Origin: Anaerolineales bacterium
Lineage (GTDB): Bacteria > Chloroflexota > Anaerolineae > Anaerolineales > Villigracilaceae
NCBI GenBank assembly: GCA_034434035.1
Contig: DAOTZM010000088.1
Location: 1-55,653, forward strand
Length of the DNA stretch: 55,653 nt
Reading direction: 5' to 3'
In this document: positions 826 to 38,071 of the stretch, piece after piece
Layout of the letters: every line of letters begins with the position of its first letter
How positions within the stretch are numbered: position 1 is the stretch's first letter
Notes under the pieces: model-generated
Told to the model about the DNA's origin: nothing
Database searches by the model: none
Seen by the model: the letters and a program-made list of their open reading frames with translations, nothing else
Made by a program: the position numbers and the translations under genes

Positions 826-855
826 TTGAAATGGTTTTGCAATTCTATGTATAAT
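826..855 (+). promoter_or_regulatory. candidate sigma70-type promoter (TTGAAA - 18 nt - TATAAT)
   Basis: Read directly in the AT-rich intergenic region about 75 nt upstream of the 929 start codon. No experimental support. Confidence 0.35.
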
Positions 856-928
856 ATTTTTAGTTCATCCCCATAAACTCCTAATCGGATATAATTTGGG
901 AGAATTCAGATTCACGACGGAGAAGGTT

Positions 929-2347
929 ATGGCTATCAAACAATTCTCGCAGACCGACCCGCAGTGGAAAAGCAAATTGCTCGGATTCGATAAAACATCG
1001 ACCATCGGCAATTTTGGCTGCCTGCTGACCAGTTTTACGATGTGCGCCACCCACTACGGAGCGACCGACCTGACGCCGGATACGCTGAACGACAAAATGA
1101 AAGCCGTCGCAGGCTTCCAGGCCGGTACGGCTTTTATCATCGGCGGCGCGCTGGGCAGCGTGGTGTCGGGCATGAGCGTGGATTACCGCAAGGGCGCGCC
1201 GCTGGCCGAAATCGACGCTTCATTGGCCCAGGGACGCCCGGTCATCATCGAGGCCGACTGGTCGCCATCTGCCGGGCTGCAAACCCACTACATGGTGGTC
1301 TACTCCAAAGAAGGGGATGACTACCTGGTGTATGACCCGTATCCCTTTCCTGTGGACAAAGGCGTTATCAAACTCTCTGCATCGAAATACGCCCAACTGG
1401 CCGGGTCGAAAGAAGCGAATCGCATCATCACCGGCTGTTTCTTCACGCGCGGCGCGATGAAAATCGACCCGCCAACCCCGCCCAAACTGGATAAGGGCGT
1501 GTATGCCTCCTTCCCGGTCTATGCGACGGCGGACGAACTGGCCGTGCGCTCCCAGCCGATGGTCTCCGATTTCACCCTGCTAAAACGCTACCCGGTCAAC
1601 ACCGAGTTCAAAGTGCTGGAGGCCGACGCCGCCGCCAACCCCAAAATCGGCCAGCAAAACCAATGGCTGGCGGTCAAAGCGCCCGACGGGACGGAAGGCT
1701 ACACCGCCGCCTGGCTGGTCTCGAAGGCAAAAAACGCCGCCGCGCCCGCGCCCGGCACGCCGCCCGCGCCGGTTCCCGTTCCCAAGGATGCACCGGTCGT
1801 CAAAACCAATGTGGATGCGCTCAAACTGCGCTCCAAGCCCGATAACACCGAGGCCACCATCCTGAAAATGTACCCGATTGGCGCCGAGTTGAAGGTGCTG
1901 GAGCCAGGTTCCGAAGTCAAGCGCAAAGTGGGCGTGAATTTCGAGTGGCTCAAAGTGGCCGATGTGGAAGGCAAACAGGGCGTGGTTGCCGCCTGGTACG
2001 TCTCCATCGTCAGCCTGGGCGCCTTCGGCCCCGAAGCCCAGCGGCAGACAGCCGGACCGAACTTTAGCATCGAGGAAGTTCCCCCGCTGGTTCTGCGCAC
2101 CACCGAAGACGGCGTGGCGATGCGCGCCAAGCCGTATATATCCCAAGATACCCTCATCCTGCGCATGCCCAAAGGCGCGGAATTGATTGCAATGGGCCGC
2201 CAGGATACTGCCGCCAGGAAGGTTGGCAAAGCCGGGGACTGGATTCGCGTAAAAGATGTCAAAGGCAACAAGGGCTATGTAGCCGCCTGGCTGCTGGAAG
2301 AACGCCCCGAAGACCCAATTCCACAGGTCAGCCCGGCAGACTGCTAA
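929..2347 (+). CDS. papain-like (Peptidase_C39_2-like) cysteine peptidase domain followed by three bacterial SH3 (SH3b) repeats
   Basis: N-terminal Q/C/H/D pattern (FSQTDPQW, GNFGCLLTS, THYMVVY, YDPY). Three about 65-aa repeats end in (G)YxAAW(L/Y)(V/L). I prefer the ATG at 929, preceded by GGAGAAGG, over the TTG at 896. Confidence 0.65.
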   Translation: MAIKQFSQTDPQWKSKLLGFDKTSTIGNFGCLLTSFTMCATHYGATDLTPDTLNDKMKAVAGFQAGTAFIIGGALGSVVSGMSVDYRKGAPLAEIDASLAQGRPVIIEADWSPSAGLQTHYMVVYSKEGDDYLVYDPYPFPVDKGVIKLSASKYAQLAGSKEANRIITGCFFTRGAMKIDPPTPPKLDKGVYASFPVYATADELAVRSQPMVSDFTLLKRYPVNTEFKVLEADAAANPKIGQQNQWLAVKAPDGTEGYTAAWLVSKAKNAAAPAPGTPPAPVPVPKDAPVVKTNVDALKLRSKPDNTEATILKMYPIGAELKVLEPGSEVKRKVGVNFEWLKVADVEGKQGVVAAWYVSIVSLGAFGPEAQRQTAGPNFSIEEVPPLVLRTTEDGVAMRAKPYISQDTLILRMPKGAELIAMGRQDTAARKVGKAGDWIRVKDVKGNKGYVAAWLLEERPEDPIPQVSPADC

Positions 2348-2349
2348 AC

Positions 2350-2369
2350 ATCCCATGTTTTTATGGGAT
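2350..2369 (+). terminator. weak hairpin directly after the stop codon (ATCCCAT-GTTTTT-ATGGGAT)
   Basis: 7-bp stem seen in sequence. No T-run after the stem, so terminator function is uncertain. Confidence 0.3.
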
Positions 2370-2805
2370 TGAGAGAAATCAGGCCTTACTGCGAAGTACA
2401 CAGAGTTCTATTGCGCATCACCCGCACGACCTTTGTGTACTTCGCGCCCATTAAATAACGTGAATTCGAGATAGAGATTTAGCGCTTGATTGCGTGAAAA
2501 TGTTGCGCGCAAAGCCGCCAAGGCCGCCAAGTTTTTAAGTTTTCTTTTCTGTGCCGTACAAATTTAAAAAATTGAACCGCGAAGCCCGCAAAGATAGCAA
2601 AGAAATCCTGAAATCTGTGCGTTCTTGGCATTCTTCGCGGTAAAAAATCCGAGGATATACGGTAGAGAAGTTTTCTTTGCGAACTTTGCGCCTTTGCGTG
2701 AGAAAAAGCATAAAACTTAACCAGGAAATTTTATCCCGAACTGACGTTAAGTAAGGCCCGCGTCTTTTAAGAGATGGGAAGTTAGAGCAACCCAGGAAGT
2801 GCATC

Positions 2806-4905
2806 TTGACGAAATTTGCCGACCTAGAAATCAGTTTTCACAAACACGAACAGGGACAATACAGCGTGGAATTGCGTCTTTCGCTGCCCGATTCCGAAGC
2901 CGATATTCGTCCGGGCAGCGGCGCGCCGATTGTGGTGGAGTTCGATTTCTCGACCATTCAGTTGATGATTTCTGACCCCAAAGAATACGGCCTGATGCTC
3001 GCAGAAAGTTTCTTCGTGGCCGAAATGGACAAGGCCTTTGCCGAGGCGCGCGCCAGCGCCGCTGCGGCGGGTGCGCCTTTGCGGGTGCGCCTGCTGGCCG
3101 ATTCGAGCGCGCCCGAAATCAACACCCTGTACTGGGAAGCCCTGCGCAACCCCAAAGACAAGTCAGCGCTGTTTACGGGAGAAAACATCCTGCTCTCGCG
3201 TTACCTTGCGAGCGGCGACCTGCGCCCCGTCAAATTGCGCCCGCAGGGCGCGTTGAAGGCCCTGGCAGCAGCGTCCAATCCTTCCGACTTAACAGGATAC
3301 AAACTGGCGCCGGTTGATGTGGCCGGTGAACTGGGGCGGGCAAAAGATGCCCTCGGCGCGATTCCTGTCACCGAACTGGGCCGCGCTGAACCCTGTACGC
3401 TCAACGCATTGGCGGAAAAATTACGCGCTGGCTGCGACATCCTGTACCTGGCAGCGCATGGCACGGTTGCCGAGGGTGGCCCGCGCGTCTGGCTGCAAAA
3501 CGAAGACGGCAGCGCGGCCATCACCTCGGCGGAAGAAATCGTCACCCGCATCCGAGAATTGCAGAACCCCCCGCGCCTGGTGATGCTGGCCTCCTGCCAG
3601 AGCGCCGGGGACGGTAAACCGAACAAGGATACGGGACGGGTGTTGCAAGCCTTTGGCCCCGGCCTGGCGCAAGCCGGCATCCCGGCGGTGGTTGCCATGC
3701 AGGGCAATATCAGCATGGATAGCGTCAAGAAATTTCTGCCGGTCTTTTTCAGCGAGTTGCAAAAAGACGGCCAGATAGACCGCGCCCTGGCCGTGGCGCG
3801 CGGCACCATCCGCGATGCGCACGACTTCTGGATGCCGGTCTTATTCATGCGCCTGCGCAGCGGCAAAATATGGTACGTGCCAGGGGTAGGTGAAGAAGGC
3901 GATGAATTCGACAAATGGCCCGGCCTGGTCACCGCCATCCAAAACAACGCCGCCTGCACGCCCATCCTGGGGCCGGGATTGTACGAGCCGTTAATGGGTT
4001 CATGGCAGGATATCGCCGAGGGGCTGGCAAAGAAATTCGACTTCCCGCTTTCTGATGCGATGCGCCAATCTATCCCCCAGGTTGCGCAATATATTGCCAC
4101 CCATTACGACCCGGGCAGTCTGTTCGACAGCCTGGACGCCATGACTCGCAAGGCAGTGCAGGAGCGGTTTGCCAGCCAATTGCCAGACCCGCTCAAGAAA
4201 CCCGGCGCCAGCATCGAAGAACTCTTCCGCGCTGCCGGCCGCAAAGCGCGCGAGCAGGATAAAATCGAGGCTTATTGCGTGCTGGCGAATTTACCGCTGC
4301 GCATCTACATCACAACCGGCTACGACGACATGCTGGCCGACGCGCTGCGCGAAGTCGAAATCGAGGCCGAGAGCGGGGAAAAGGAGAAAAAGAAGCCCGA
4401 AGTCGTCATCTGCCCCTGGAGCGAACGCTTTTACGCGCCGTCAATCTACGATGATGAACCGGGCTATGCGCCGAGCGTCGAACGCCCGCTGGTCTATCAC
4501 CTGTTCGGGCATCGCAGCGTCCCCGATTCGATGGTGCTGACCGAAGACGATTATTTCGAGTTCCTGATGGGATTCACCGCCAACAAGAAGCGCACCCCGC
4601 CGGTCATCCCGCCGGCAGTCTTGCGCGCCCTGACCGATACCGCCCTGCTCATCCTGGGCTTCTCGCTGGATGACTGGGCCTTCCGCGCCCTGTTCCGCAC
4701 GGTGATGATTCAGCCAGGCGGCGCGCGGCGCGGACGTTACTCGCATGTTGGCATCCAACTGGAACACGACGACGCGCGCAATATGAACCCAAAGCGCGCC
4801 CGCGCCTACCTGCAAAAATACTTTGAGCAGGCGCAAATCAACCTGTATTGGGGCAAATCTGAAGATTTCCTGCGAGAACTGGCCCAACGCTGGAAGGCAG
4901 CATAA
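2806..4905 (+). CDS. CHAT (caspase-fold, clan CD) protease fused to a SIR2-like (SIR2_2 type) domain
   Basis: 699 aa. CHAT His/Cys dyad in ILYLAAHG and, 49 aa later, LVMLASCQSAG. C-terminal half has SIR2_2 landmarks: TPILGPGL, IYITTGYDDML, VYHLFGH...MVLTEDDYFEF, LILGFSLDDWAF. TTG start with AGGAAG 8 nt upstream. Confidence 0.8.
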   Translation: MTKFADLEISFHKHEQGQYSVELRLSLPDSEADIRPGSGAPIVVEFDFSTIQLMISDPKEYGLMLAESFFVAEMDKAFAEARASAAAAGAPLRVRLLADSSAPEINTLYWEALRNPKDKSALFTGENILLSRYLASGDLRPVKLRPQGALKALAAASNPSDLTGYKLAPVDVAGELGRAKDALGAIPVTELGRAEPCTLNALAEKLRAGCDILYLAAHGTVAEGGPRVWLQNEDGSAAITSAEEIVTRIRELQNPPRLVMLASCQSAGDGKPNKDTGRVLQAFGPGLAQAGIPAVVAMQGNISMDSVKKFLPVFFSELQKDGQIDRALAVARGTIRDAHDFWMPVLFMRLRSGKIWYVPGVGEEGDEFDKWPGLVTAIQNNAACTPILGPGLYEPLMGSWQDIAEGLAKKFDFPLSDAMRQSIPQVAQYIATHYDPGSLFDSLDAMTRKAVQERFASQLPDPLKKPGASIEELFRAAGRKAREQDKIEAYCVLANLPLRIYITTGYDDMLADALREVEIEAESGEKEKKKPEVVICPWSERFYAPSIYDDEPGYAPSVERPLVYHLFGHRSVPDSMVLTEDDYFEFLMGFTANKKRTPPVIPPAVLRALTDTALLILGFSLDDWAFRALFRTVMIQPGGARRGRYSHVGIQLEHDDARNMNPKRARAYLQKYFEQAQINLYWGKSEDFLRELAQRWKAA

Positions 4906-4926
4906 GGGAAGAGGAGTATTACAGGT

Positions 4927-7900
4927 ATGCCTGAAAACGCCATGAACACCACCATCGCTTCGCGCCCAAACCCGTATGTCGGCACGCGCCCCTTCAAACG
5001 AGGCGAAACCCTCTACGGGCGCGAGCAGGAAACATCCGAGCTGCTGGATTTGCTGATTGCCGAACGCATCGTCATGCTGTATTCGCCCTCCGGCGCGGGA
5101 AAGAGTTCCCTGTTGAATGCTTCCATCCTGCCCAAGATGGAAGAAAGCGGATTCGAGATATTGCCTGCGGCGCGCGTCAACCACGAACCGTCCCCCGAGG
5201 CCCAAGCAATTTCAGGCTTCAATCGCTATATTTACAGCCTGATAGTTTGCATCGAGGAGGGAGTTCCTGCCGAACACCGCTTCCCACCCGAAGAAATCGC
5301 CGCGCTGCGGCTCAAGCAATACCTGACCCGCCATCGTGAACGCGCCATCGCGTTGGACCCCGCTTACGACGATTCGCGCGCCCGGCTGCTGGTCATCGAC
5401 CAGGGTGAAGAAGTTATCACCATCGACCCGGCAGCCCGCGAGCAAAAACAGGATTTCTTCAACCAACTGGGCGAAGTCTTGCGCGACCGCAGCATTTGGA
5501 TGCTGTTCTCCCTGCGCGAGGACTATGTCGCCCGCTTCGATTCGTATATCAAACCCATCCCCACCGGCTTCGCCACCCGCTACCGACTGCGCCTGCTGCA
5601 ATCCGAGGCAGCCCTGCCCGCGATTCAAAAACCCCCGTTGCAGCACAATGTCGTCTTTACCGAGGAGGCCGCCCGCAAACTGGCCGATGACCTGCGCAAA
5701 ATGCAGGTACAGCAAGCCGACGGCACAGCCGAGGAACAACTCGGATTGTACGTCGAGCCGGTCCAGTTGCAGGTCGTCTGCCGCCGCCTGTGGAGTTCGC
5801 TCGAACGCAGCGACAATGAAATCGGCCTCGATGACCTCGAACGGGTAGGCGATGTCGATACCGCCCTGGCCGACTATTACAGTTTGCAAGCCGCCACCGT
5901 CGCCGCCAAAACCGGCGTGCGCGAACGCGCCATCCGCGAATGGTTCGACCGCAAACTCATCACCAAGCAAAATGTCCGCAGCCAGGTGCTGTTGGCGCCC
6001 GGTAAAAGCGACGGCCTGGAAAACCACGCCATTCACGAGATGGAACGCACCTACCTGGTGCGCTCCGAAAAGCGCGGCGGCTCCACCTGGTTCGAACTGG
6101 CCCACGACCGACTGATTATCCCAGTCCGTGAAAACAACCAGGCCTGGTTCGACAAACACCTGAGCGTATTACAGCGCGCCGCCGATGTCTGGAACGAACA
6201 GGGGCGCAGCGATGGCTTGCTGCTCTTTGGAAAAGATTACCTGGAGGCCGAAGAATGGGCGCGTAAGAACGCAGACTTTCTCCTGCCCCATGAATCAGAC
6301 TTTATCAATGCCTGCCACAAATACTTTGAACAGCAGAGACGCGAGCGGCAAACCAACTTCATCGTCCGCGTTCTGTTGGGCGTGAGCCTGGTGGCGCTGG
6401 CTGCCGCCATTGTCCTGTTCATCCAAGCCAGGCAGGCCGAAAACCGCGCTGAAACGGAACAATTGGCGGCGAGTTCGCTCAGGGACTTGAAGGTTGACCC
6501 AATTAACAGTCTTTTGTTGGCCGTGGAAGCCGTGCAAAACACCCAGCCGCCCCTGCCCAACGCCATTGACGCCCTGCATCGCTCCCTGCCCTCCATGCGC
6601 CTGGCGCGCACCTATTACGGACATACCGACCGGGTTTATGGCATTTCTTACAGCCCGGATGGCCGCTTGCTGGCATCCTCCAGCCGCGACGGCTCGATAA
6701 AAATTTGGGATGCCAGCGGCGCGACCCGCGACGCCCTCTACACCTTCAACATCGATACAGTCCCCAACTCGTATGGCGCAAGCAACGTCGCCTTTAGCCC
6801 GGATGGCCGCCTGCTGGCAGGGGTCAACGGGCAGGGAGAAATCGTCCTGTGGGACACTGCCACCTGGCAGGAAATCCGCCGCAAAAACAACGCCCACGCT
6901 GGGGTCATCTGGGGGCTGGCCTTCAGCCCGGATAGCCGTCTCCTGCTCACCGGCGGAGGCGACTCGCTCGTCAAACTGTGGAACGCCTCCGATTTGGGCG
7001 AAATCCACACATTTAGCGAACACCAGGATGTGGTCAACGCCGTAGCCTTCAGCCCCGATGGAACGATGATTGCCAGCGCGTCCGACGACCGCACAGCAAA
7101 AGCCTGGCGCGTTTCCGACTACAGCCGCGCTGCCTCCTACAGCCTCCCGCCGCGCATCCTCTCCAACCCGCCGCGCGTGAATAGCGTGACCTTCAGCCTC
7201 GATAACACCCGCCTGATTTCCACCTCGACCGATGGCAATGTTTATGTTTGGGACATCGCTTCTGGCGCGCAAATCATGAAAATCGGCGGGCACGACGACT
7301 GGGTCTACGGCGTTCTGGCGCGCCCCGGCTCCGATGCCGATGCCACGCAGGGCGAAATTATCACCGCCGGGGCCGACCGCTCCATCCGCATCTGGGGCGG
7401 CCTGTATGGGCGTTCCAAACTCGAATTGCGCGGTCATACCGACCAGGTTTACAGCCTGGCGCTCCACCCCACCGATGACGGCCTGCTGGCCTCCGCCAGC
7501 GCCGACCAAACGGTGCGCATCTGGGATATTTCCTGGGCCGGGAACTATGAGAGATTCACCAAGGACCTCGAAACCGAACAGGGAATTCCCGGCTATGCCG
7601 AAGATGTGGATTACAACCCGCAAGGCACGCTGCTGGCTATTCCCATCTCCCTGGCAAGGAATCCCAACGACCCCTTCCCCAATTATGGGCTTCCGGGAGA
7701 AATCCTGCTCGTCGACCCGCGCACTGGCGAACGGGACGGGCCATCCCTGCGCGGCCATAGAGCCGGTGTCTTTGCCATTGATTTCGACAGCAGCGGCCGG
7801 CGCCTGGTTTCGGCCTCTCTCGACAAAACCGCCATTATCTGGGATGTCGAAGCCCGCAATCCGCTATTCACCCTGGAACATGACAACATCGTTTACTCGG

Positions 7901-8667
7901 CAGACTATAGCCCGAATGACTGGTGGATTGCCACCGGAACGCAGACAGGCGATATAGTGCTATGGGACGCGAAGACCGGCGCGCGAATCAAATCCTTCTC
8001 CTATCGGGATATCCTGGGAACAACCGTAGACAGGAAAATCGTAGCCCAGGTGCAATTCGACACCGACAGCACCTTAATCGCCATCCAGTACCGGGAAGAT
8101 AAAAACATCTACCTGATTGACGCCCAAACCGGCGCGCTGGAAATGACCTTGCGCGGCCATGAAGACATCGTCCGCGATATCGACTTCAGCCTGGATGACG
8201 CTACCCTGGTCTCCGTAGGCGACGACGCCCGGATGATTTTGTGGGACCTGACCCCCGGCATCCCCGATGACAAGCGTATCCTTAACGTGTACCAGGAGCA
8301 CCTGGCGACCATATTCAGCGTGACCTTTTCTACGCTAGAAAACAACGAATACATCCTCAGCGCCGGGGCCGATGGCGTGGTGAAAGTCTGGAGCCGGGTC
8401 GACCCCAACAAGGATGACTGGGAAGTCGCCTATACCCTGCGCGCCTACGCCTTCGCCAACGATGACACCATCCTGGATATCGAAATTTCTCCCACCAACG
8501 AAAACGAAGTCGTGGCGGTCGTCAATGATTGGACAGCGCGCGGTTTCACCCTCTCGAAAACGGAACTGCTCGAACTGGCCAAACAGCGTCTGCGCGTCAA
8601 CCTCGATTGCCGCCAGCCCGAAGAACTGGAACCGCTCGAACAGGAAATTTGCACGATGAATCCGTAA
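4927..8667 (+). CDS. STAND-type P-loop NTPase (nSTAND-like), single TM helix, long WD40 repeat array
   Basis: 1246 aa. N-terminus NPYVGTRPF...LYGRE, Walker A SPSGAGKSS, Walker B LLVIDQGEE. Hydrophobic helix FIVRVLLGVSLVALAAAIVLFIQ (about 6358-6426). At least 12 WD40-like units (GHTDRVYGISYSPDGRLLASSSRDGSIKIWD and similar). GAGGAG Shine-Dalgarno (SD) sequence upstream of the ATG. Confidence 0.85.
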   Translation: MPENAMNTTIASRPNPYVGTRPFKRGETLYGREQETSELLDLLIAERIVMLYSPSGAGKSSLLNASILPKMEESGFEILPAARVNHEPSPEAQAISGFNRYIYSLIVCIEEGVPAEHRFPPEEIAALRLKQYLTRHRERAIALDPAYDDSRARLLVIDQGEEVITIDPAAREQKQDFFNQLGEVLRDRSIWMLFSLREDYVARFDSYIKPIPTGFATRYRLRLLQSEAALPAIQKPPLQHNVVFTEEAARKLADDLRKMQVQQADGTAEEQLGLYVEPVQLQVVCRRLWSSLERSDNEIGLDDLERVGDVDTALADYYSLQAATVAAKTGVRERAIREWFDRKLITKQNVRSQVLLAPGKSDGLENHAIHEMERTYLVRSEKRGGSTWFELAHDRLIIPVRENNQAWFDKHLSVLQRAADVWNEQGRSDGLLLFGKDYLEAEEWARKNADFLLPHESDFINACHKYFEQQRRERQTNFIVRVLLGVSLVALAAAIVLFIQARQAENRAETEQLAASSLRDLKVDPINSLLLAVEAVQNTQPPLPNAIDALHRSLPSMRLARTYYGHTDRVYGISYSPDGRLLASSSRDGSIKIWDASGATRDALYTFNIDTVPNSYGASNVAFSPDGRLLAGVNGQGEIVLWDTATWQEIRRKNNAHAGVIWGLAFSPDSRLLLTGGGDSLVKLWNASDLGEIHTFSEHQDVVNAVAFSPDGTMIASASDDRTAKAWRVSDYSRAASYSLPPRILSNPPRVNSVTFSLDNTRLISTSTDGNVYVWDIASGAQIMKIGGHDDWVYGVLARPGSDADATQGEIITAGADRSIRIWGGLYGRSKLELRGHTDQVYSLALHPTDDGLLASASADQTVRIWDISWAGNYERFTKDLETEQGIPGYAEDVDYNPQGTLLAIPISLARNPNDPFPNYGLPGEILLVDPRTGERDGPSLRGHRAGVFAIDFDSSGRRLVSASLDKTAIIWDVEARNPLFTLEHDNIVYSADYSPNDWWIATGTQTGDIVLWDAKTGARIKSFSYRDILGTTVDRKIVAQVQFDTDSTLIAIQYREDKNIYLIDAQTGALEMTLRGHEDIVRDIDFSLDDATLVSVGDDARMILWDLTPGIPDDKRILNVYQEHLATIFSVTFSTLENNEYILSAGADGVVKVWSRVDPNKDDWEVAYTLRAYAFANDDTILDIEISPTNENEVVAVVNDWTARGFTLSKTELLELAKQRLRVNLDCRQPEELEPLEQEICTMNP

Positions 8668-8684
8668 CGCGGAATTCATTCCGC
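8663..8684 (+). repeat. palindromic 22-mer CGTAACGCGGAATTCATTCCGC (copy 1; contains the stop codon of the WD40 gene)
   Basis: Exact reverse-complement copy at 13817-13838 and a 21/22 copy at 54186-54207. Followed by a second palindrome GCGAAATAAATTTCGC (8693-8708). Confidence 0.9.
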
Positions 8685-8731
8685 GCCATAATGCGAAATA
8701 AATTTCGCGCTACATAGCCAAAGGAGCGAGA

Positions 8732-10741
8732 ATGTCACAGGAATTGTTTCTCAACGGAATCGACGCCGACACCGGCGGCCCCATCGACGGAGACGATGTT
8801 GTCATCACTACCGAGATGATTGCCAAAGTGGCGCGCGGGCAGAAACTCACGCCCGAAGACCTGCGCGATGCCAAGATGCGCAAAGCCCTCGATGACCAAA
8901 AACATGAGCATTTTGGCGTGGCCGAAGGAATCGACGATACCAACCTGGCTGAAACCGGCTGGTCGGTCATCTTCCCGGCGGCCCTGCCCAAAAAATCGGT
9001 CGATGCGCTCAAGGAAGCCCTCGAACCCCTGCTCGACCATCGCCGCGAACAGGCCTCGGCCAACGCCGAAACATTCTACAAGGAAGTCATCGGCCCGGAG
9101 TTGGGCATCAAAAACGGCGAGAGCAAGAACGAGTTCCTAAAACGCTTTGGGCGCGGCCCCGGCCCGGCGGACCCGGCCAAGTTCCCCTACTATGCCCTGA
9201 TTGTCGGCTCGCCGGAAACCATCCCCTACACCTTCCAATACCAGTTGGACGTGCAATACGCCGTGGGGCGCATTTACTTCGACAAACTCGAAGACTATTA
9301 CCAGTATGCCCAGAGCGTGGTTGCCGCCGAAACCAAGAAGCTGGCGCGCGCCAGGAAAGCCGCTTTCTTTGGCGTCGCCAACCCCGACGACCGCGCTACC
9401 CAGATGAGCGCCGAACATCTCATCCAGCCGCTGGCAAAGCAAATGAAAACCCGCAAAGACTGGAAAGTGGATGTCGTCGCCCCCGAAAAAGCCACCAAAG
9501 CCAACCTGGGCAATTACATGGGCGGCAAGGATACCCCCTCCCTGCTCTTTACTGCCTCGCACGGCATGAATTTCAAGATGGGCGATCCGCGCCTGCTGCG
9601 CCACACCGGCGCCATCCTGACCCAGGACTGGCCCGGCCCCAAAGCGCGCGTCCCCATCAAGGAAGACCTGTACTTCTCCGCCGACGACATCGCTTCGAAT
9701 GCCGATGTGTTCGGCATGATTGCCTTCGTCTTTGCCTGTTATGGCGGCGGTATTCCCAAGATGGATAACTTCTACCGGCAAGCCTTTGGCTCGCAAAAAG
9801 AGATTGCCCCGTATGCCTTCATCTCGCAGTTGCCGCTCAGGCTGCTCTCCCACCCCAAGGGCGGCGCGCTGGGCGTCTTTGCGCACGTCGAACGCGCCTG
9901 GGGACAATCGATTATCTGGGACCAATCGGCAGCCGATGTCGTCACCTTTACATCAATGATTGACGCCCTGCTGAATGGCAAACCCGCCGGAGCCGCCACC
10001 GAGTACTTCAACGAACGCTACGCCGAAATCTCCACCATGCTGACCGAGGAACTGGACAACACCACCCCAGACAATCAAGATGACGTTAAAATTGCCGGAT
10101 TGTGGACCTCGAACAACGATGCCCGCAACTATGCCTTCATCGGCGACCCGGCGGTGCGGCTGGCTATCGGCGCAGCGGAAACGCCCAAGCCCGAACGCGA
10201 GAAACTCGGCGCGATTGTCAGCCAGCCCCCGGCGGCAGTCGTCGGCGCGGCGGTCAGTTTCCAGCCGGATGTCGAAGACCGCGCCCCGGCAGCAAAGGCC
10301 GCCACTTCAGGCGGCGCAGCGGTGGATTACAGTGTCCGCGACCTCTTCAGTAAAAAACCAGAACCAGGGGATGGCGCAGCCCCCGCCCCCGCCAGCGGCG
10401 GACTGAACGAATCGCTTAAAAATTTCGTCGAAAAACTGGGCAATTACCTCAGCAAAGCCCTCGACGACGCCAGCAGCCTGGAAGTCAGCACCTACGTAGC
10501 CGATGACCTGGCCGATGTAAAATATGAAAGCGGCAAATACAGCGGCGCCCGCCTGCGCGCCATAACCCGCATCAACCTCGACGGCGACACCCTGGTCTGC
10601 ATCCCGGAAAAAGACGGCGAAGTCGATACTGCCATCTGGAACATTCACCTCGAGATGGTCAAATCGGCCCAGGAAAACCGCGCGGAATTAATGAAAACCA
10701 TCGTCGGCGCGGCGACGAGCATTGTCAACATCGTCAAGTAA
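8732..10741 (+). CDS. caspase-fold (clan CD, gingipain/C25-like) cysteine protease with a C-terminal domain shared with the downstream small protein
   Basis: 669 aa. His in LLFTASHGM and Cys in IAFVFACYGGG, each after a hydrophobic strand and about 50 aa apart. YALIVGSPETIPY resembles the C25 family. Ala/Pro/Gly-rich linker, then an about 110-aa C-terminal domain. AAAGGAG SD 6 nt upstream. Confidence 0.6.
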   Translation: MSQELFLNGIDADTGGPIDGDDVVITTEMIAKVARGQKLTPEDLRDAKMRKALDDQKHEHFGVAEGIDDTNLAETGWSVIFPAALPKKSVDALKEALEPLLDHRREQASANAETFYKEVIGPELGIKNGESKNEFLKRFGRGPGPADPAKFPYYALIVGSPETIPYTFQYQLDVQYAVGRIYFDKLEDYYQYAQSVVAAETKKLARARKAAFFGVANPDDRATQMSAEHLIQPLAKQMKTRKDWKVDVVAPEKATKANLGNYMGGKDTPSLLFTASHGMNFKMGDPRLLRHTGAILTQDWPGPKARVPIKEDLYFSADDIASNADVFGMIAFVFACYGGGIPKMDNFYRQAFGSQKEIAPYAFISQLPLRLLSHPKGGALGVFAHVERAWGQSIIWDQSAADVVTFTSMIDALLNGKPAGAATEYFNERYAEISTMLTEELDNTTPDNQDDVKIAGLWTSNNDARNYAFIGDPAVRLAIGAAETPKPEREKLGAIVSQPPAAVVGAAVSFQPDVEDRAPAAKAATSGGAAVDYSVRDLFSKKPEPGDGAAPAPASGGLNESLKNFVEKLGNYLSKALDDASSLEVSTYVADDLADVKYESGKYSGARLRAITRINLDGDTLVCIPEKDGEVDTAIWNIHLEMVKSAQENRAELMKTIVGAATSIVNIVK

Positions 10742-10817
10742 TACGAATACGTTCCGAAGGCTTGCTATGATGCGTTCAAAGCACCGATAAAAATCTTCGG
10801 AACGGTTTACGAAAATT

Positions 10818-11621
10818 ATGCCTGTCTTTGAATCCACCGGAACCAGCGACCCGCTCGGTTTGTGGACATCCGCTCCACAGTCGGGAATGGTGCATTTTGG
10901 CATCGGAGACGAAGCCCTCTCCCCGCCGCCAGATGCGCCGGTCTTCCGTGTCAACTTGCCGGGCAGCAGTGAAGCAGCCAGCGAGGTCTTTGAGACCAGC
11001 GAAGCCTGGTTCGAGCGGATGAATGCAGCGCTCGAGGCTGTTCCCGACCGGCTGGATACCCTGGTCAGCCAGATGCAGGCCCGCCAGGCGGCGGGAGACT
11101 CCATCAGTTTCGACGCTGCCAGCCTGGAGGGGGAACCCGGCCCGGAGAGCGACCTGCTCCACCTGCTGGAGGACGCCTCCCAGCCCGCAGCAGCGGAGGA
11201 TGAAGGGGGAATGGCGCATTTCGGCATCGAAGAACCTATCAGCCAGGCCTGGCAGGATGCCCGGGCGCGCTTCGATGCCTTGATGGAGCAAATCAACCGC
11301 GAGGTGCTGCACTTCGCCTGGGTCGAGACCAATATTGCCGGGCAACTCATCGCCCGCAGCGAAATCGATTGGAGCGGCGACGCCACCACCCTGTGGGTCG
11401 AAAACGTCTCCGAAGAACAAAAGTCGCTCCACCACCGCGCACTCAACGTGGCCGCCCGCAGCCGCAATATGAAACTGCGCCTGTTCGTAACGGTGGCGGG
11501 CGGCGCGGCCAAAGTGACAACCCTGATGGCCGCCGGGACGCCCGTGCTGGCCTTGCCGGCTGTTTACCAGTATGTCCTGTCGATTGTCAAGCAAGTCAGG
11601 CAGCTGCAAAGCGTATCGTGA
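10818..11621 (+). CDS. hypothetical acidic protein with an internal duplication (GM[VA]HFGI motif x2) and a hydrophobic C-terminus
   Basis: 267-aa ORF co-directional with the operon. I recognise no family. C-terminal LFVTVAGGAAKVTTLMAAGTPVLALPAVYQYVLSIV is hydrophobic. The start codon is uncertain (no clear SD). Confidence 0.5.
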   Translation: MPVFESTGTSDPLGLWTSAPQSGMVHFGIGDEALSPPPDAPVFRVNLPGSSEAASEVFETSEAWFERMNAALEAVPDRLDTLVSQMQARQAAGDSISFDAASLEGEPGPESDLLHLLEDASQPAAAEDEGGMAHFGIEEPISQAWQDARARFDALMEQINREVLHFAWVETNIAGQLIARSEIDWSGDATTLWVENVSEEQKSLHHRALNVAARSRNMKLRLFVTVAGGAAKVTTLMAAGTPVLALPAVYQYVLSIVKQVRQLQSVS

Positions 11622-11701
11622 ACATTGTCCCCGGCAAACCGGCGGACTTCAAAAGCAAACAGTCCATCGGCAAGCCGATGGACTCCAAAAAAGGAGAAAA
11701 A

Positions 11702-12025
11702 ATGGCAACCAGCCCCGAACTGAAACAAGCCCTGAAAGACGCCGCCGATGCCATCGCCAAGTATGTGCAGGATGCCGCGACCATGACCGTCGAGACCCGC
11801 TACGTCGAAATGGGCGGCGAGGTCGAAAAGGCCAAACTGGCCGCCCGCACCACCGTCAAACTGGACGGCGACAGCGAATCCATCCTGCCGATGAAACAGT
11901 CCGCCGAGGGCGAACTGGTGGTCGATACGGTCGTCTATGAGATGCACCAGGAGAATGTACAGGCCGCCATCGACTACCGGGCCGAGATGCTCGACCGCCT
12001 GCTGACCGTGCTGCGCAGGGAGTAA
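11702..12025 (+). CDS. small (107 aa) protein homologous to the C-terminal domain of the 8732-10741 protease
   Basis: AAGGAG SD 6-7 nt upstream of the ATG at 11702. Aligns with protease residues about 560-669 (shared LK..L, DA, V.T, L.A.T...LDGD, VDT, H.E.V..A...RAE). Confidence 0.65.
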   Translation: MATSPELKQALKDAADAIAKYVQDAATMTVETRYVEMGGEVEKAKLAARTTVKLDGDSESILPMKQSAEGELVVDTVVYEMHQENVQAAIDYRAEMLDRLLTVLRRE

Positions 12026-12035
12026 ATTCTCGATA

Positions 12036-12070
12036 AAAACGTCCCGAAGGCTGACTGCCTTCGGGACGTT
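12036..12070. terminator. bidirectional intrinsic terminator-like hairpin (15-bp perfect stem, 5-nt loop)
   Basis: AAACGTCCCGAAGGC-TGACT-GCCTTCGGGACGTTT lies between the convergent genes ending at 12025 (+) and 12076 (-). Confidence 0.75.
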
Positions 12071-15731: not shown

Positions 15732-15805
15732 AAGTTTCTCTCTTTCCGGGTTCGTTATTCCGGGTTCGTTATTCGGGGTTCGATATTCGTTATTCGACCA
15801 ATTTT

Positions 15806-15875
15806 CGAGTATCGAGTATCGAGTATCGAGTATCGAGTATCGAGTATCGAGTATCGAGTATCGAGTATCGAGTTT
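15806..15875. repeat. tandem heptanucleotide array (CGAGTAT x9 plus 1 variant), flanked by 14/7-mer repeats (15745-15796) and GAATTACC-type repeats (15881-15908)
   Basis: Counted directly. Lies between the cytochrome-b fusion gene (stop at 15894) and the yeeE-like start (15731). Confidence 0.95.
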
Positions 15876-15893
15876 CGCGCCACGAATTACCAA

Positions 15894-35265: not shown

Positions 35266-36957
35266 ATGACAAACTTGGTAACACAACTATCCTTTCTTGA
35301 AGCACCAGAGGATACGATTCCTGGAGTCGAAACCCATAATGGCGAACAACCAGAAACCTATACTGGCATGTACGCAATGCACAAGTATTGGTCCAAAAAA
35401 CCATATAATCTGGTTTCTTTGTATATTGAAAAGTATTCAAAAACTAACGATTTAGTTCTTGACCCGTTTTGCGGTTCAGGTGTTACTGTTACAGAAAGTA
35501 TCAGACTAAGGCGACGCGCTATAGGCGTGGATATAAATCCAACCGCCATTATCTCTACGAAAATGGGACTTACGCATGTAGATGTAAAAACCCTTAAGAA
35601 AAGTTTCGATTTTTTACGTTCAGAAGTAGAGCAGGAAATCAGCAATCTTTATCAAACAAATTGTCCAAAATGTGGAAATACGCAAGCAATTGCAACTCAT
35701 ACTATCTGGAATGGGGAACAGATTGATGAGATATGGGTAGAATGTAAAGCATGTGGAAATTCTAAAGCGATAAAAAAACCTTCCGCTGGTGACAGACTTG
35801 CCGCATTAGAACCTATTCGACCAGCGGCCTGGTATCCCACGACTTTATTGTTAGAAAACAGTCGCATCAATGCTAAAGCGGGGATGCGCGTTTGTGATTT
35901 ATTTACGCCTCGCGCGCTATCGAATTTGTCTTTGCTCTTGGACAAAATTCGACAAATTGAGGATGAGCAAATCAAAGCAGTCATGGAGTTTTGCTTTAGC
36001 GCAATGCTCCCACAAGCCAGTAATATGGTTTTTGTAATCCGTCGTCGCGGAAAGACATATGGCACAGGCGAAAGCAATGAAACCAAAGCAGAAGTTGGAA
36101 GTTGGGTTATTGGCTATTGGATACCATCAGAACATTTTGAAATTCATGTTTGGCGATGTTTTGAAAATCGATTCAAGAGAATTTTGAAAGGCAAACAGGA
36201 AGTAAATCACGCTATTCCGTCTTATATTGGTGAATTCTCGTTATTTGACGACCTTGAAAAATCCCAAGATGGCTATTTGGTTCAAAAAGGAACGGCGACA
36301 GACCTTTCTTTCATTAACTCTAATTCGATAGATTATATTTTTACAGACCCGCCACACGGCAATCGAATACCGTATCTCGAACTTAGCCTGATGTGGAACT
36401 CATGGCTTAATTACGATTTTGACTTGGAAAACGAAATCATAATATCTGAGTCAAAGGTTCGCAAAAAAGGCGTTAGAGACTACGAACAAAGGCTTAAGAC
36501 AGCATTTAGCGAAATGTGGCGAGTCCTCAAAGCAGATGGACATGCTTCAATCGCATTCAACAGCCTGGATGATGATACATGGCTTTCACTTCTAAACACT
36601 TTATTAGCCGCAGGTTTTGAAATAAAAGAAATAACCCCCCTCGAATATTCTGCCCGTTCTGTGGTGCAAGACACCCGCAAAAATGCGCTCAAAACAGACT
36701 TTATAATTACCTGTCAAAAACGATTGGCGGAGACTCGTCAACAAATTACTTATGGTTACACTGAAAAAGAACTACTGTCAGCTCTTGAAAATTATCTAAA
36801 AAATCGCAAGAACGGCGCAGAAACTTACGAGATATTGAACCATCTCCTGGTTGCAAGCATTCCTACAGGGACAATTTTCAAGGTATCACAAATCGTTGAG
36901 TATGTAAAAAAGGTTGCTGCCTTTTTTAACGGACGCTGGCAATTCAATCTATCCTGA
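35266..36957 (+). CDS. DNA methyltransferase (N6-adenine/N4-cytosine type, alpha motif order) with a Zn-ribbon insert
   Basis: Motif I LDPFCGSGVT is N-terminal. CPKCGN...CKACGN. Motif IV IFTDPPHG about 300 aa downstream. The region is AT-rich. Confidence 0.8.
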   Translation: MTNLVTQLSFLEAPEDTIPGVETHNGEQPETYTGMYAMHKYWSKKPYNLVSLYIEKYSKTNDLVLDPFCGSGVTVTESIRLRRRAIGVDINPTAIISTKMGLTHVDVKTLKKSFDFLRSEVEQEISNLYQTNCPKCGNTQAIATHTIWNGEQIDEIWVECKACGNSKAIKKPSAGDRLAALEPIRPAAWYPTTLLLENSRINAKAGMRVCDLFTPRALSNLSLLLDKIRQIEDEQIKAVMEFCFSAMLPQASNMVFVIRRRGKTYGTGESNETKAEVGSWVIGYWIPSEHFEIHVWRCFENRFKRILKGKQEVNHAIPSYIGEFSLFDDLEKSQDGYLVQKGTATDLSFINSNSIDYIFTDPPHGNRIPYLELSLMWNSWLNYDFDLENEIIISESKVRKKGVRDYEQRLKTAFSEMWRVLKADGHASIAFNSLDDDTWLSLLNTLLAAGFEIKEITPLEYSARSVVQDTRKNALKTDFIITCQKRLAETRQQITYGYTEKELLSALENYLKNRKNGAETYEILNHLLVASIPTGTIFKVSQIVEYVKKVAAFFNGRWQFNLS

Positions 36958-36967
36958 TGGAGTTTTC

Positions 36968-38071
36968 ATGCCTTCCGATTTCAACGTTTTACGCAAGTTA
37001 TATGACGATAACAAGTTTGTTGAATTACTGCGCCATCCAAACGGAATTTTCTGGCTTAAGCTTCGCTCAATTTCAAGAGCGGAGCAAATGCGACAATTTT
37101 GTCAACAGATTCAGTTTGACACCGAACTTTTTCAAGGTCGTCAATTATTTGAACAGGTTTACAACCATAAGCCAGATAATCAGGCTTTAGAGAATTTTAT
37201 TCGGAAATGGTTCCAACAAGAACGAGCCGAAAGACAGAAAAACGAAAACTATATCATTTCCCAACTGTACCAAATGAAGGAATTTGATTGGGGCGGTTTG
37301 TACCAAAACTCGCTTGAACAAACAATCGTGGACAATTACATCAAAAGAATACAAAATTGGGACGAACTTAATTCGGCTATTGACAACGAAATTCATGTCA
37401 GCATGAAAGGCTATGTTCAATGTTCTTGGTATAACCACTGGTCATCTATCTTGATTGAAGACATATTCAAAGACCATCCTTCAGTTTTACCTGCAATGGG
37501 GTTGGTGAAAAAAGTTGATTTCTTCATCCACAATTTCCCCTTTGATTTGAAAGTGACTAATTTTCCTGATGGGTATATGGAAATATTACGCAGGGCAGAA
37601 GGTCTACGACCTGAATTGACCTTACTAAAAGCCTTCTGCCGTCAACAAGGAATATGGTTTGATAACGGAAAGCCTGCCAGTGTTCTTTTCTCAGAACTTT
37701 TATCGAAAGTAACGGAGCATCCCTCGCAAGTCGCGCAAGAATTCATCGCTGATTTCAACGCAACTCGAATGCGGTTACTGCAACAAACTATCGAAAACCC
37801 AGAGTCGCTAAAAATTTGGCTTTATGAAAATCAAGGCGTCCGCAGGTTCGACGCATCTAATCGCTTTTTCCTCGTCCTGGTGAATGCGAATGACTTTGAC
37901 AAAAGTTGGAAATTAAAGCGCAACAAGGACTTATTGGCAAAGTCTATTCATTCTCACCTGGACGAGATGAATCCCAACACTATGGAAAATCTGCGTGTAG
38001 AGTTTCAATGGCAAAACGAAAATTATGAAACCTACGCTGACATGTTGTTCGTTGTTGTTGATAAAAGTTGA
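36968..38071 (+). CDS. putative Type II restriction endonuclease partner of the adjacent methyltransferase
   Basis: 367 aa, starts 11 nt after the MTase stop, same low GC. I recognise no family. Possible PD-(D/E)xK-like VDFFIHNFPFDLKV. The call rests on context. Confidence 0.45.
   Translation: MPSDFNVLRKLYDDNKFVELLRHPNGIFWLKLRSISRAEQMRQFCQQIQFDTELFQGRQLFEQVYNHKPDNQALENFIRKWFQQERAERQKNENYIISQLYQMKEFDWGGLYQNSLEQTIVDNYIKRIQNWDELNSAIDNEIHVSMKGYVQCSWYNHWSSILIEDIFKDHPSVLPAMGLVKKVDFFIHNFPFDLKVTNFPDGYMEILRRAEGLRPELTLLKAFCRQQGIWFDNGKPASVLFSELLSKVTEHPSQVAQEFIADFNATRMRLLQQTIENPESLKIWLYENQGVRRFDASNRFFLVLVNANDFDKSWKLKRNKDLLAKSIHSHLDEMNPNTMENLRVEFQWQNENYETYADMLFVVVDKS

Follow-up and report, generated by a model that had tools for sequence, protein, structure and literature searches.

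A previously unannotated α/β domain occurs in three adjacent genes of a gingipain-like protease cassette in Anaerolineales

Background

In multicellular bacteria, STAND and caspase-type conflict systems are thought to mirror the logic of animal apoptosis and inflammasomes, yet the adaptor and output modules that have been defined for them are very few, and those that have been tested fewer still. In animals, caspases are recruited through death-fold domains, and CARD-only and PYD-only proteins carry such a domain alone; in bacteria, gasdermin-protease operons and CHAT/caspase-like defence effectors offer further points of comparison. Here we analysed a stretch of 55,653 nucleotides from an Anaerolineales bacterium of the Villigracilaceae (assembly GCA_034434035.1, contig DAOTZM010000088.1, positions 1 to 55,653), hereafter called the window. 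Its forward strand carries a cassette of three genes encoding a gingipain-like cysteine protease, a 267-aa protein (the middle protein) and a 107-aa protein (the small protein), preceded by genes for nSTAND1-WD40, CHAT-SIR2 and C39-SH3 proteins (Table 1). An α/β domain of about 100 residues, present at the C-terminus of the protease, within the middle protein and as the whole of the small protein, is a real, previously unannotated family.

Like CARD and PYD systems, the cassette combines a caspase-fold protease and a free domain-only protein that share one domain, and an Apaf-1-like STAND-WD40 protein is encoded nearby. The fold of the domain, however, is unrelated, and the STAND protein carries no copy of it. 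The resemblance to gasdermin operons lies in a caspase-fold protease encoded beside a protein of about 260 aa with a hydrophobic C-terminal part, near NTPase/repeat sensors, and activation by cleavage is plausible; the middle protein differs in that it has neither a gasdermin nor any other Pfam match and in that its hydrophobic segment is weak. To our knowledge, tethering through a shared domain is not a feature of gasdermin systems.

Effector-associated domains (EAD1-11), which are bacterial death-like domains, have been described in NTPase-centred conflict systems by Kaur, Burroughs, Iyer and Aravind (PMC7159879, PMC8195603). The domain of the cassette resembles EADs in being a small non-catalytic module shared by effector enzymes, in this case peptidases, and further proteins of a locus, in its apparent portability between effector types, in its enrichment in multicellular or filamentous bacteria and in its proximity to STAND NTPase, CHAT and SIR2 genes. 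Unlike most EADs, which are all-α, it has an α/β topology with long terminal helices; also unlike EADs, copies in adjacent genes are not mutual closest relatives but belong to three ancient paralogue classes in a fixed three-gene cassette. The defining principle of EADs, i.e. one domain on both the core NTPase or sensor and the effectors, is not seen in the window and appears only elsewhere, in a distant nSTAND1 protein (P0346, see below). With the domain hidden Markov models (HMMs), no copy was found at E ≤ 10 in the nSTAND1-WD40, CHAT-SIR2 or C39-SH3 proteins of the window. Since the local nSTAND1 protein lacks a copy, the domain does not couple NTPase to effector as published EADs do, and domain-mediated coupling of the protease to this neighbour was rejected. 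A first-pass annotation of the window, made from the sequence only, had likened the module to adaptors and EADs. What stands of this comparison is the portable module, found both fused and free; it does not extend to the local nSTAND1 protein, and there are three copies rather than the two then recognised.

Trypco1 and Trypco2 are small domains that co-occur with trypsins, and EACC1 and a caspase form two-gene systems in which a constant small component with a single conserved transmembrane helix rich in small residues, encoded 5' of the caspase-fold protease, is paired with it and proposed to act in proteolytic activation (PMC7159879). In the cassette, too, a small protein is obligatorily encoded beside a peptidase in a conflict-type system. 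The peptidases are C25-like or C39-like here, whereas trypsins are the partners of Trypco, and in neither Trypco nor EACC1 is the small domain also fused to the peptidase. Trypco1, Trypco2 and EACC1 were rejected as identities, with no Pfam or NCBIfam match and a different anatomy: neither the middle nor the small protein has a clear transmembrane helix (no 19-residue window reaches a Kyte-Doolittle value of 1.6), and their genes lie 3' of the protease gene, not 5' as for EACC1. Judged by its neighbours and the literature, the cassette belongs among the NTPase/caspase conflict systems of multicellular bacteria and matches none of their described adaptor or companion families; a literature search found no description of the three-gene cassette.

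Results and discussion

Three paralogous copies of one domain

The first-pass annotation had aligned the end of the protease with the product of the small gene. Both open reading frames (ORFs) are present, and the segments and coordinates quoted for them were accurate. In a BLASTP alignment, residues 7-97 of the small protein were 30% identical to protease residues 558-654 (E 4e-10). An HMM built from 43 homologues of the small protein matched about 115 protease homologues at their C-terminal ends, over positions ~2-103 of the model (E 1e-11 to 1e-5), and the reverse HMM, built from the C-terminal domains of the proteases (CTD), matched 105 of 105 small proteins with values down to E 6e-15. 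Comparison of the two profiles with hhalign gave a probability of 97.2% and E 3.1e-11 over 97 columns. T32, A48, T50, G56, P63, H82 and R93 are invariant in both groups, and D55, D57, D75 and V86 are at least 90% conserved across them.

A third copy, overlooked in the first pass, is well supported by sequence comparison in the middle protein. A combined profile of the small proteins and the CTD matched the middle family in hhalign (E 6.7e-5, probability 64%), and an HMM of middle-protein residues 138-240, derived from 120 homologues, matched 130 of 369 domain-bearing proteins at E<0.01 in near-full-length register, against 0 of 369 shuffled controls. Taken alone, the middle-protein sequence of the window scores weakly with the domain HMMs (E about 0.01-0.2). 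In the alignment, AWVETN...LIARSEIDWSGDATTLW...LHHRALNVAARSR of the middle protein lines up with MTVETR...LAARTTVKLDGDSESIL...MHQENVQAAIDYR. The CTD, middle and small copies are ~30% identical between classes, compared with 50-97% among orthologues within a class. These values indicate that the three copies are old, specialised paralogues, which argues for a fixed hetero-complex over a generic homotypic adaptor.

A ribosome-binding site (AGGAG ~8 nt before the ATG), the terminator-like hairpin directly after the stop codon, the bias of substitutions towards third codon positions (differences from locus L011 at positions 1/2/3: 11/2/45) and the existence of homologues establish the small ORF as a real gene. 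Its conservation in relatives was borne out by a word-indexed search that returned 105 stand-alone homologues of 104-120 aa with 50-97% identity; the mean column identity of the family is 65%, and the named homologues come from metagenome-assembled genomes of Anaerolineae or Chloroflexi.

Fold and database status of the domain

The domain consists of an N-terminal helix, a β-meander, in which the turn ART-x-[VI]-x-[LW]-DGD is conserved, and, at the C-terminal end, a long helix with a conserved H and R. In AlphaFold2 (AF2) models the helices (H) and strands (E) of the small protein (pLDDT 66) are H4-26, E29-37, E45-53, E58-66, E72-74 and H76-106, and those of the protease copy are H558-580, E582-589, E597-604, E607-615, E620-623 and H633-668. 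An exhaustive profile search of 1.84 billion representatives at E ≤ 1e-3 gave a family of 727 clusters at 50% identity.

Window proteins were scanned against a 2025 copy of Pfam-A at E ≤ 0.1 and 37 domain sequences at E ≤ 10. No Pfam, NCBIfam or PADLOC family was found for the small or the middle protein, and neither the 37 domain members nor 39 members of the middle family gave a Pfam match at E ≤ 10. Sequence searches of the PDB with the protease and with the domain profile returned nothing meaningful (best match a chaperonin, E 0.049). Foldseek comparison of the small-protein model (pLDDT 66) with the PDB gave no match below E 0.7 among the 50 listed; cystatin-like and NTF2-like matches at E about 3 were set aside.

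The resemblance to a death fold, raised in the first pass, did not hold. In AF2 models of moderate confidence both copies are composed of a helix, 3-5 β-strands and a long helix and do not form a six-helix bundle; none of the EAD, TRADD-N, Trypco, EACC or death-like models of Pfam matched, even at E ≤ 10, and no death fold was among the Foldseek PDB matches listed. Given its α/β topology, the domain is not a death fold. The YbaB/EbfC-like fold comprises ~110 aa arranged as helix, three strands and helix. This candidate was not supported: PF02575 was absent at E ≤ 10 among the 37 members, and neither the sequence search of the PDB nor the list of 50 Foldseek matches, obtained with a model of pLDDT 66, included a YbaB chain.

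A gingipain-like protease with an intact dyad

The protease matches the C25 family model PF01364 (E 2.7e-7; 30.6 bits against a cut-off of 23). Its AF2 model, based on an alignment of 97 sequences (pLDDT 80, pTM 0.73), has a confident core at residues 61-515, a disordered linker at 519-558 (pLDDT below 50) and the helix, β-meander and long helix of the domain at 558-668. The top five Foldseek matches are RgpB and Kgp (E 3.5e-6 to 2.5e-5; best RgpB, 1cvr, E 3.5e-6), followed by TPR-CHAT, SAVED-CHAT and separase. H277 and C336 are invariant in the 97 homologues. On the basis of the model, the enzyme is a C25-type protease of gingipain-like fold with an intact catalytic dyad and a predicted active site.

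The protease has the fold and the catalytic His/Cys arrangement of the gingipains RgpB and Kgp (MEROPS C25). It differs from them in its identity of only 12-15%, in the absence of Ig-like domains and of a type IX secretion C-terminal domain, and in its cytoplasmic, conflict-type context. No signal peptide was noticed at its N-terminus by eye, no formal prediction having been made. The type IX sorting domain is all-β and ~80 residues long; no Pfam match of the Por_Secre_tail type was obtained, and the CTD of the cassette is α/β, has two long helices in its model and is unrelated to that signal. Additional paralogous C25-like protease genes without the C-terminal domain adjoin the cassette in three loci (L042, L048 and L058), which suggests local expansion of the protease family.

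Conservation of the cassette and its neighbours

A genome scan with one genome per species yielded 54 loci, nearly all from Anaerolineae or other Chloroflexota and two from Myxococcota. Where 3.3 kb or more of upstream sequence was available (45 loci), the order of domain-bearing C25-like protease, middle gene and small gene was kept in 44, across Anaerolineae, Chloroflexus, Thermomicrobiales and Myxococcota; in a search begun from the protease it was kept in 2 of 3 loci. The small gene is the last of the cassette and often overlaps the preceding gene. That the small gene accompanies proteases with this domain, a point put forward for checking in the first pass, is thus true of the 44 loci and fails for a protease in locus L063, which has the domain and no partners nearby. 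The wider synteny of L063 is the same as in L001 (sigma-70, DUF8173, AAT and cytidylyltransferase genes).

Of the 37 loci in which the upstream sequence extends over 9 kb or more, 26 have an nSTAND1-WD40 gene and 25 a CHAT-SIR2 gene ahead of the cassette, and 20 have a C39-SH3 gene. Other loci have a CHAT-HEAT protein or a CHAT-nSTAND1-WD40 fusion beside the cassette.

Fission, fusion and tandem copies

The first-pass proposal of a duplicated module, once fused to an effector and once free, is supported by a fission gene, a fusion to a C39 peptidase, tandem copies and the co-occurring small gene. In locus L026 (8692-9201) linker and domain form a separate gene of 169 aa with its own ATG, 12 nt after the stop codon of the protease gene. 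Thus, a protease core of 479 aa and a linker-domain protein are encoded there by adjacent genes (7240-9201), a natural fission of the single gene of the window, and the same fission was observed throughout a clade (L024, L027, L029, L030, L032, L035 and L040). In all, 11 loci score as split between protease and tail.

The best 150 of the 727 clusters comprise 57 C25-like fusions, 50 stand-alone domains, 41 N-terminally extended proteins and 2 stand-alone proteins that also match the middle profile. The extended group is mostly linker plus domain and includes the proteins P0386 and P0346. P0386 (L059, 102-1973) combines a C39_2-SH3 peptidase, the linker motif PVSFGLFD and a C-terminal domain copy, and its gene is followed by that of a middle-protein homologue; P0386 thus ties the upstream C39-SH3 gene of the window to the system. 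P0346 (L060, 3896-11923), with 2675 aa, combines Trypsin_2, nSTAND1, four tandem domain copies (residues 972-1333) and WD40 repeats, and the tandem arrangement suggests that copies pack against each other. The gene of P0346 is followed by a CHAT gene, and a phage-type integrase gene lies nearby. Among the best 150, all fusion partners contain peptidases (C25-like in 57, one C39_2-SH3 and one Trypsin-nSTAND1-WD40), a range much narrower than that of published EADs.

A linear motif before folded modules

In both the protease and the middle protein, folded modules are repeatedly preceded by a short motif, [HSN][FY]G[VIL]x[DE]. In its strict form it occurs three times in the 18 proteins of the window, each time in the cassette, and the small protein lacks it. 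The motifs are conserved inside segments that are otherwise variable or disordered. For the N-terminal site of the protease, column counts among 97 sequences were H 83, F/Y 91, G 91, V 87, E 94, G 93 and D 94, and the model confidence rises there from pLDDT 43-49 (residues 41-60) to 83 (residues 61-70). The FQPD site, related to the motif N[YF]G[IL]xDxFKK of the disordered linker, is modelled with pLDDT about 93 and packs with the protease core. The N[YF]G[IL]xDxFKK type is kept before the domain in stand-alone linker-domain proteins and in P0386, and the third [VI][SH]F[GD] site of the middle protein directly precedes its domain. The suggestion of the first pass that the small protein might be a decoy substrate is disfavoured, as this protein is devoid of the motif conserved in the protease and the middle protein.

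A proposed hetero-oligomerisation module and its rivals

The fixed co-occurrence of the three genes, the fission and fusion variants, the tandem arrays and the specialisation of the paralogues are best explained by a hetero-oligomerisation module. We give about an even chance to a model, drawn from the sequence comparisons, in which the three paralogous copies bind one another and unite in one hetero-oligomer the protease, the domain-only subunit and a partner, the middle protein, which is probably a substrate or an effector, with processing at the motifs and the whole serving as an output arm of STAND/CHAT proteins. The specialised copies would tether the caspase-fold protease to the middle protein. 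The [HSN][FY]G[VIL]x[DE] motif, at the boundaries of folded modules, would most likely be a processing or recognition site, and cleavage there could free the protease core from its N-terminal segment and tail as well as the domain and hydrophobic tail of the middle protein. The small protein, without motif and tail, would escape cleavage and serve as a subunit by which the assembly is capped, stabilised or restrained. Given its place behind C39-SH3, CHAT-SIR2 and membrane-anchored nSTAND1-WD40 genes, with which it apparently forms one operon, the cassette is probably the output arm of a proteolytic cascade triggered by STAND/CHAT proteins, in a system of the conflict or cell-death type of multicellular bacteria.

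Several observations weigh against this model. Confidence in the monomer models of the domain is only moderate (pLDDT 66 and 55-82), and no structural neighbour was found. Locus L063 contains an orphan domain-bearing protease (6001-7974) with neither a middle nor a small gene within 3.6 kb downstream, and some cassettes have no STAND or CHAT gene within 10 kb, so coupling to these genes is not obligatory. The protease model places part of the linker (481-515, with FQPD) and, from G62 onward, the N-terminal motif within the packed core; these stretches may therefore be structural rather than cleavage sites. A transmembrane helix in the tail of the middle protein, considered as a candidate, was not supported (Kyte-Doolittle 1.42, under the threshold). 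Finally, several of the conserved polar positions (T, T, DGD, D, H, R) have a character more typical of ligand- or metal-binding sites than of a plain adaptor.

Among the alternatives, the one that treats the small protein as a decoy or inhibitor accounts for some of the same features. As a domain-only competitor, comparable to mammalian CARD-only and PYD-only proteins, it would occupy the binding surface on either the middle protein or the protease tail and so separate protease from substrate until removed by a trigger; it consists of the domain alone, with no motif, tail or enzyme, its strong conservation agrees with such a role, and the constant last position of its gene, with frequent overlaps, suggests fixed stoichiometry. 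The small-class residues HQxNV and LPM are, however, also present in the four tandem copies of P0346, which are built into a sensor protein and are not free inhibitors. The present data fit an inhibitor and a structural subunit equally, and we consider the decoy unlikely. The polar residues lead to a different explanation, in which the domain binds a small molecule or metal, for instance a nucleotide-derived signal made by SIR2 or a different enzyme, through T/T/DGD/D/H/R and regulates each protein allosterically without mutual binding. These residues are invariant in the small and CTD classes and mostly kept in the middle class (VET, ART, GD, H, R), and about two thirds of the loci have a gene with a SIR2 domain. 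Loci that lack SIR2 and have CHAT-HEAT or CHAT-nSTAND1 partners, or none, nevertheless contain the cassette too, the Pfam and PDB searches gave no similarity to a known ligand-binding family or structure, and for three co-transcribed paralogues in fixed order, as for four tandem copies, mutual packing is simpler; we regard ligand sensing as decidedly improbable.

It appears slightly less probable still that the CTD is a prodomain, an autoinhibitor or chaperone of the protease onto which it folds back, the free copy being an active-site inhibitor in trans. Prodomains control gingipains and many other clan CD proteases, the pro-mature complex of RgpB ranks with the closest structural matches, and the conserved linker motifs could serve as pseudosubstrates; yet a disordered linker of ~40 residues separates core and domain, the third copy sits in a protein that is not a protease, and the occurrence of the domain on an unrelated papain-fold C39 peptidase and in an NTPase protein speaks against a surface tailored to a single active site. 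An artefact, whether a similarity due to chance or composition or a spurious small ORF, deserves mention since the region is rich in GC and contains many long spurious ORFs. It is already refuted by the profile-profile E value of 3e-11, hundreds of conserved homologues of both partners, and the third-position substitution bias, ribosome-binding site and terminator of the small ORF, and we regard its probability as negligible.

A more far-reaching version of the hetero-oligomer, to which we attach no more than a doubtful standing, a little above that of the decoy, would make the cassette a self-contained proteolytic executioner. An α/β homotypic domain in the role of a death fold would pre-assemble the gingipain-like protease, its dedicated substrate and a domain-only brake. 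Upon a CHAT/STAND signal, cleavage at the HFG-type motif would release the domain and hydrophobic tail of the middle protein, and this fragment would oligomerise or attack the membrane and thereby kill or arrest the cell. If true, multicellular bacteria would have an independently evolved adaptor fold for caspase-type cascades together with a new effector family. New in any case are the domain family, its fixed three-gene setting, the candidate processing motif and the fission and fusion variants that hint at interacting parts. The cassette offers a compact set of three or four proteins for the study of protease recruitment, zymogen activation and effector release, and the families provide annotation handles for thousands of 'hypothetical proteins' of Chloroflexi.

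Locus layout and other features of the window

The cassette forms the 3' part of a string of six closely spaced ORFs on the + strand (896-12025). Coordinates of the genes, domain copies, motifs and non-coding elements are collected in Table 1.

Table 1. Genes, domain copies, motifs and candidate non-coding elements of the gene string (window coordinates)
Feature	Position	Strand	Basis or remarks
Sigma-70-like promoter candidate	826..855	+	TTGAAA-18-TATAAT, 11/12 matches; consensus match only; upstream of gene string
Peptidase_C39_2 + SH3 protein, 483 aa	896..2347	+	Pfam SH3_3 E 1.3e-12, Peptidase_C39_2 E 2.2e-6
CHAT (caspase-fold) + SIR2_2 protein, 699 aa	2806..4905	+	Pfam CHAT E 1.6e-25, SIR2_2 E 9.4e-18
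nSTAND1 NTPase + hydrophobic helix + WD40 propellers, 1246 aa	4927..8667	+	Pfam nSTAND1 E 4.7e-30, WD40 E 1.6e-82
Gingipain-like (C25, clan CD) cysteine protease + linker + shared domain, 669 aa	8732..10741	+	Pfam Peptidase_C25, AF2, Foldseek
Motif HFGVAEGID, protease residues 60-68	8909..8935	+	Junction of low-confidence N-terminal segment and folded core
Linker motif FQPD, protease residues 510-513	10259..10270	+	Among 97 sequences: F 93, Q 97, P 94, D 93
Linker motif N[YF]G[IL]xDxFKK (here VDYSVRDLFSKK), protease residues 531-542	10322..10357	+	Disordered linker, ~20 residues before domain
Shared domain copy 1, protease residues ~557-669	10400..10741	+	Homology to small protein, HMM and hhalign
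Middle protein, 267 aa: motif-bearing N-terminal region, third domain copy, small-residue-rich hydrophobic tail	10818..11621	+	144 homologues, no Pfam family
Three conserved [VI][SH]F[GD] motifs, middle protein	10890-10910, 11103-11117, 11214-11234	+	Alignment of homologues
Shared domain copy 2, middle-protein residues ~138-236	11229..11525	+	hhalign and HMM of family
Stand-alone domain-only small protein, 107 aa, copy 3	11702..12025	+	Homology, 105 homologues, codon-position pattern
GC-rich 11-bp hairpin, CGTCCCGAAGGC ... GCCTTCGGGACG	12040..12068	+	Directly 3' of small-gene stop; probable terminator

The C39-SH3 protein is probably an accessory, syntenic neighbour of the cassette. In the nSTAND1-WD40 protein, residues 478-500 (nt ~6358-6426) form a strongly hydrophobic segment of 23 residues, FIVRVLLGVSLVALAAAIVLFI, between the NTPase and the WD40 propellers, with a Kyte-Doolittle maximum of 2.66 at residue 479. 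The segment is also present in the L026 homologue. It implies that this STAND protein spans the membrane, its sensor and NTPase facing opposite sides, an arrangement that would be unusual among STAND NTPases.

An inverted repeat of 10 bp between the protease and middle genes (10748-10804) is related to the hairpin behind the small gene. GC-rich hairpins at 700-752, 10748-10804 and 12040-12068 have a common arm, CGYCCCGAAGGC, for which 5 matches were counted against 0.9 expected; they flank the gene string, with one lying between the protease and middle genes, and may be terminators, attenuators or members of a small repeat family. Further downstream, two tandem arrays were observed between divergent genes (15744-15877), a 7-mer, TCGAGTA, repeated 10.4 times (15805-15877) and a 14-mer repeated 3.2 times (15744-15788). 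The GC content falls sharply to 0.40 at 36001-38000, compared with about 0.58-0.60 elsewhere in the window, which suggests that this segment is foreign or recently acquired.

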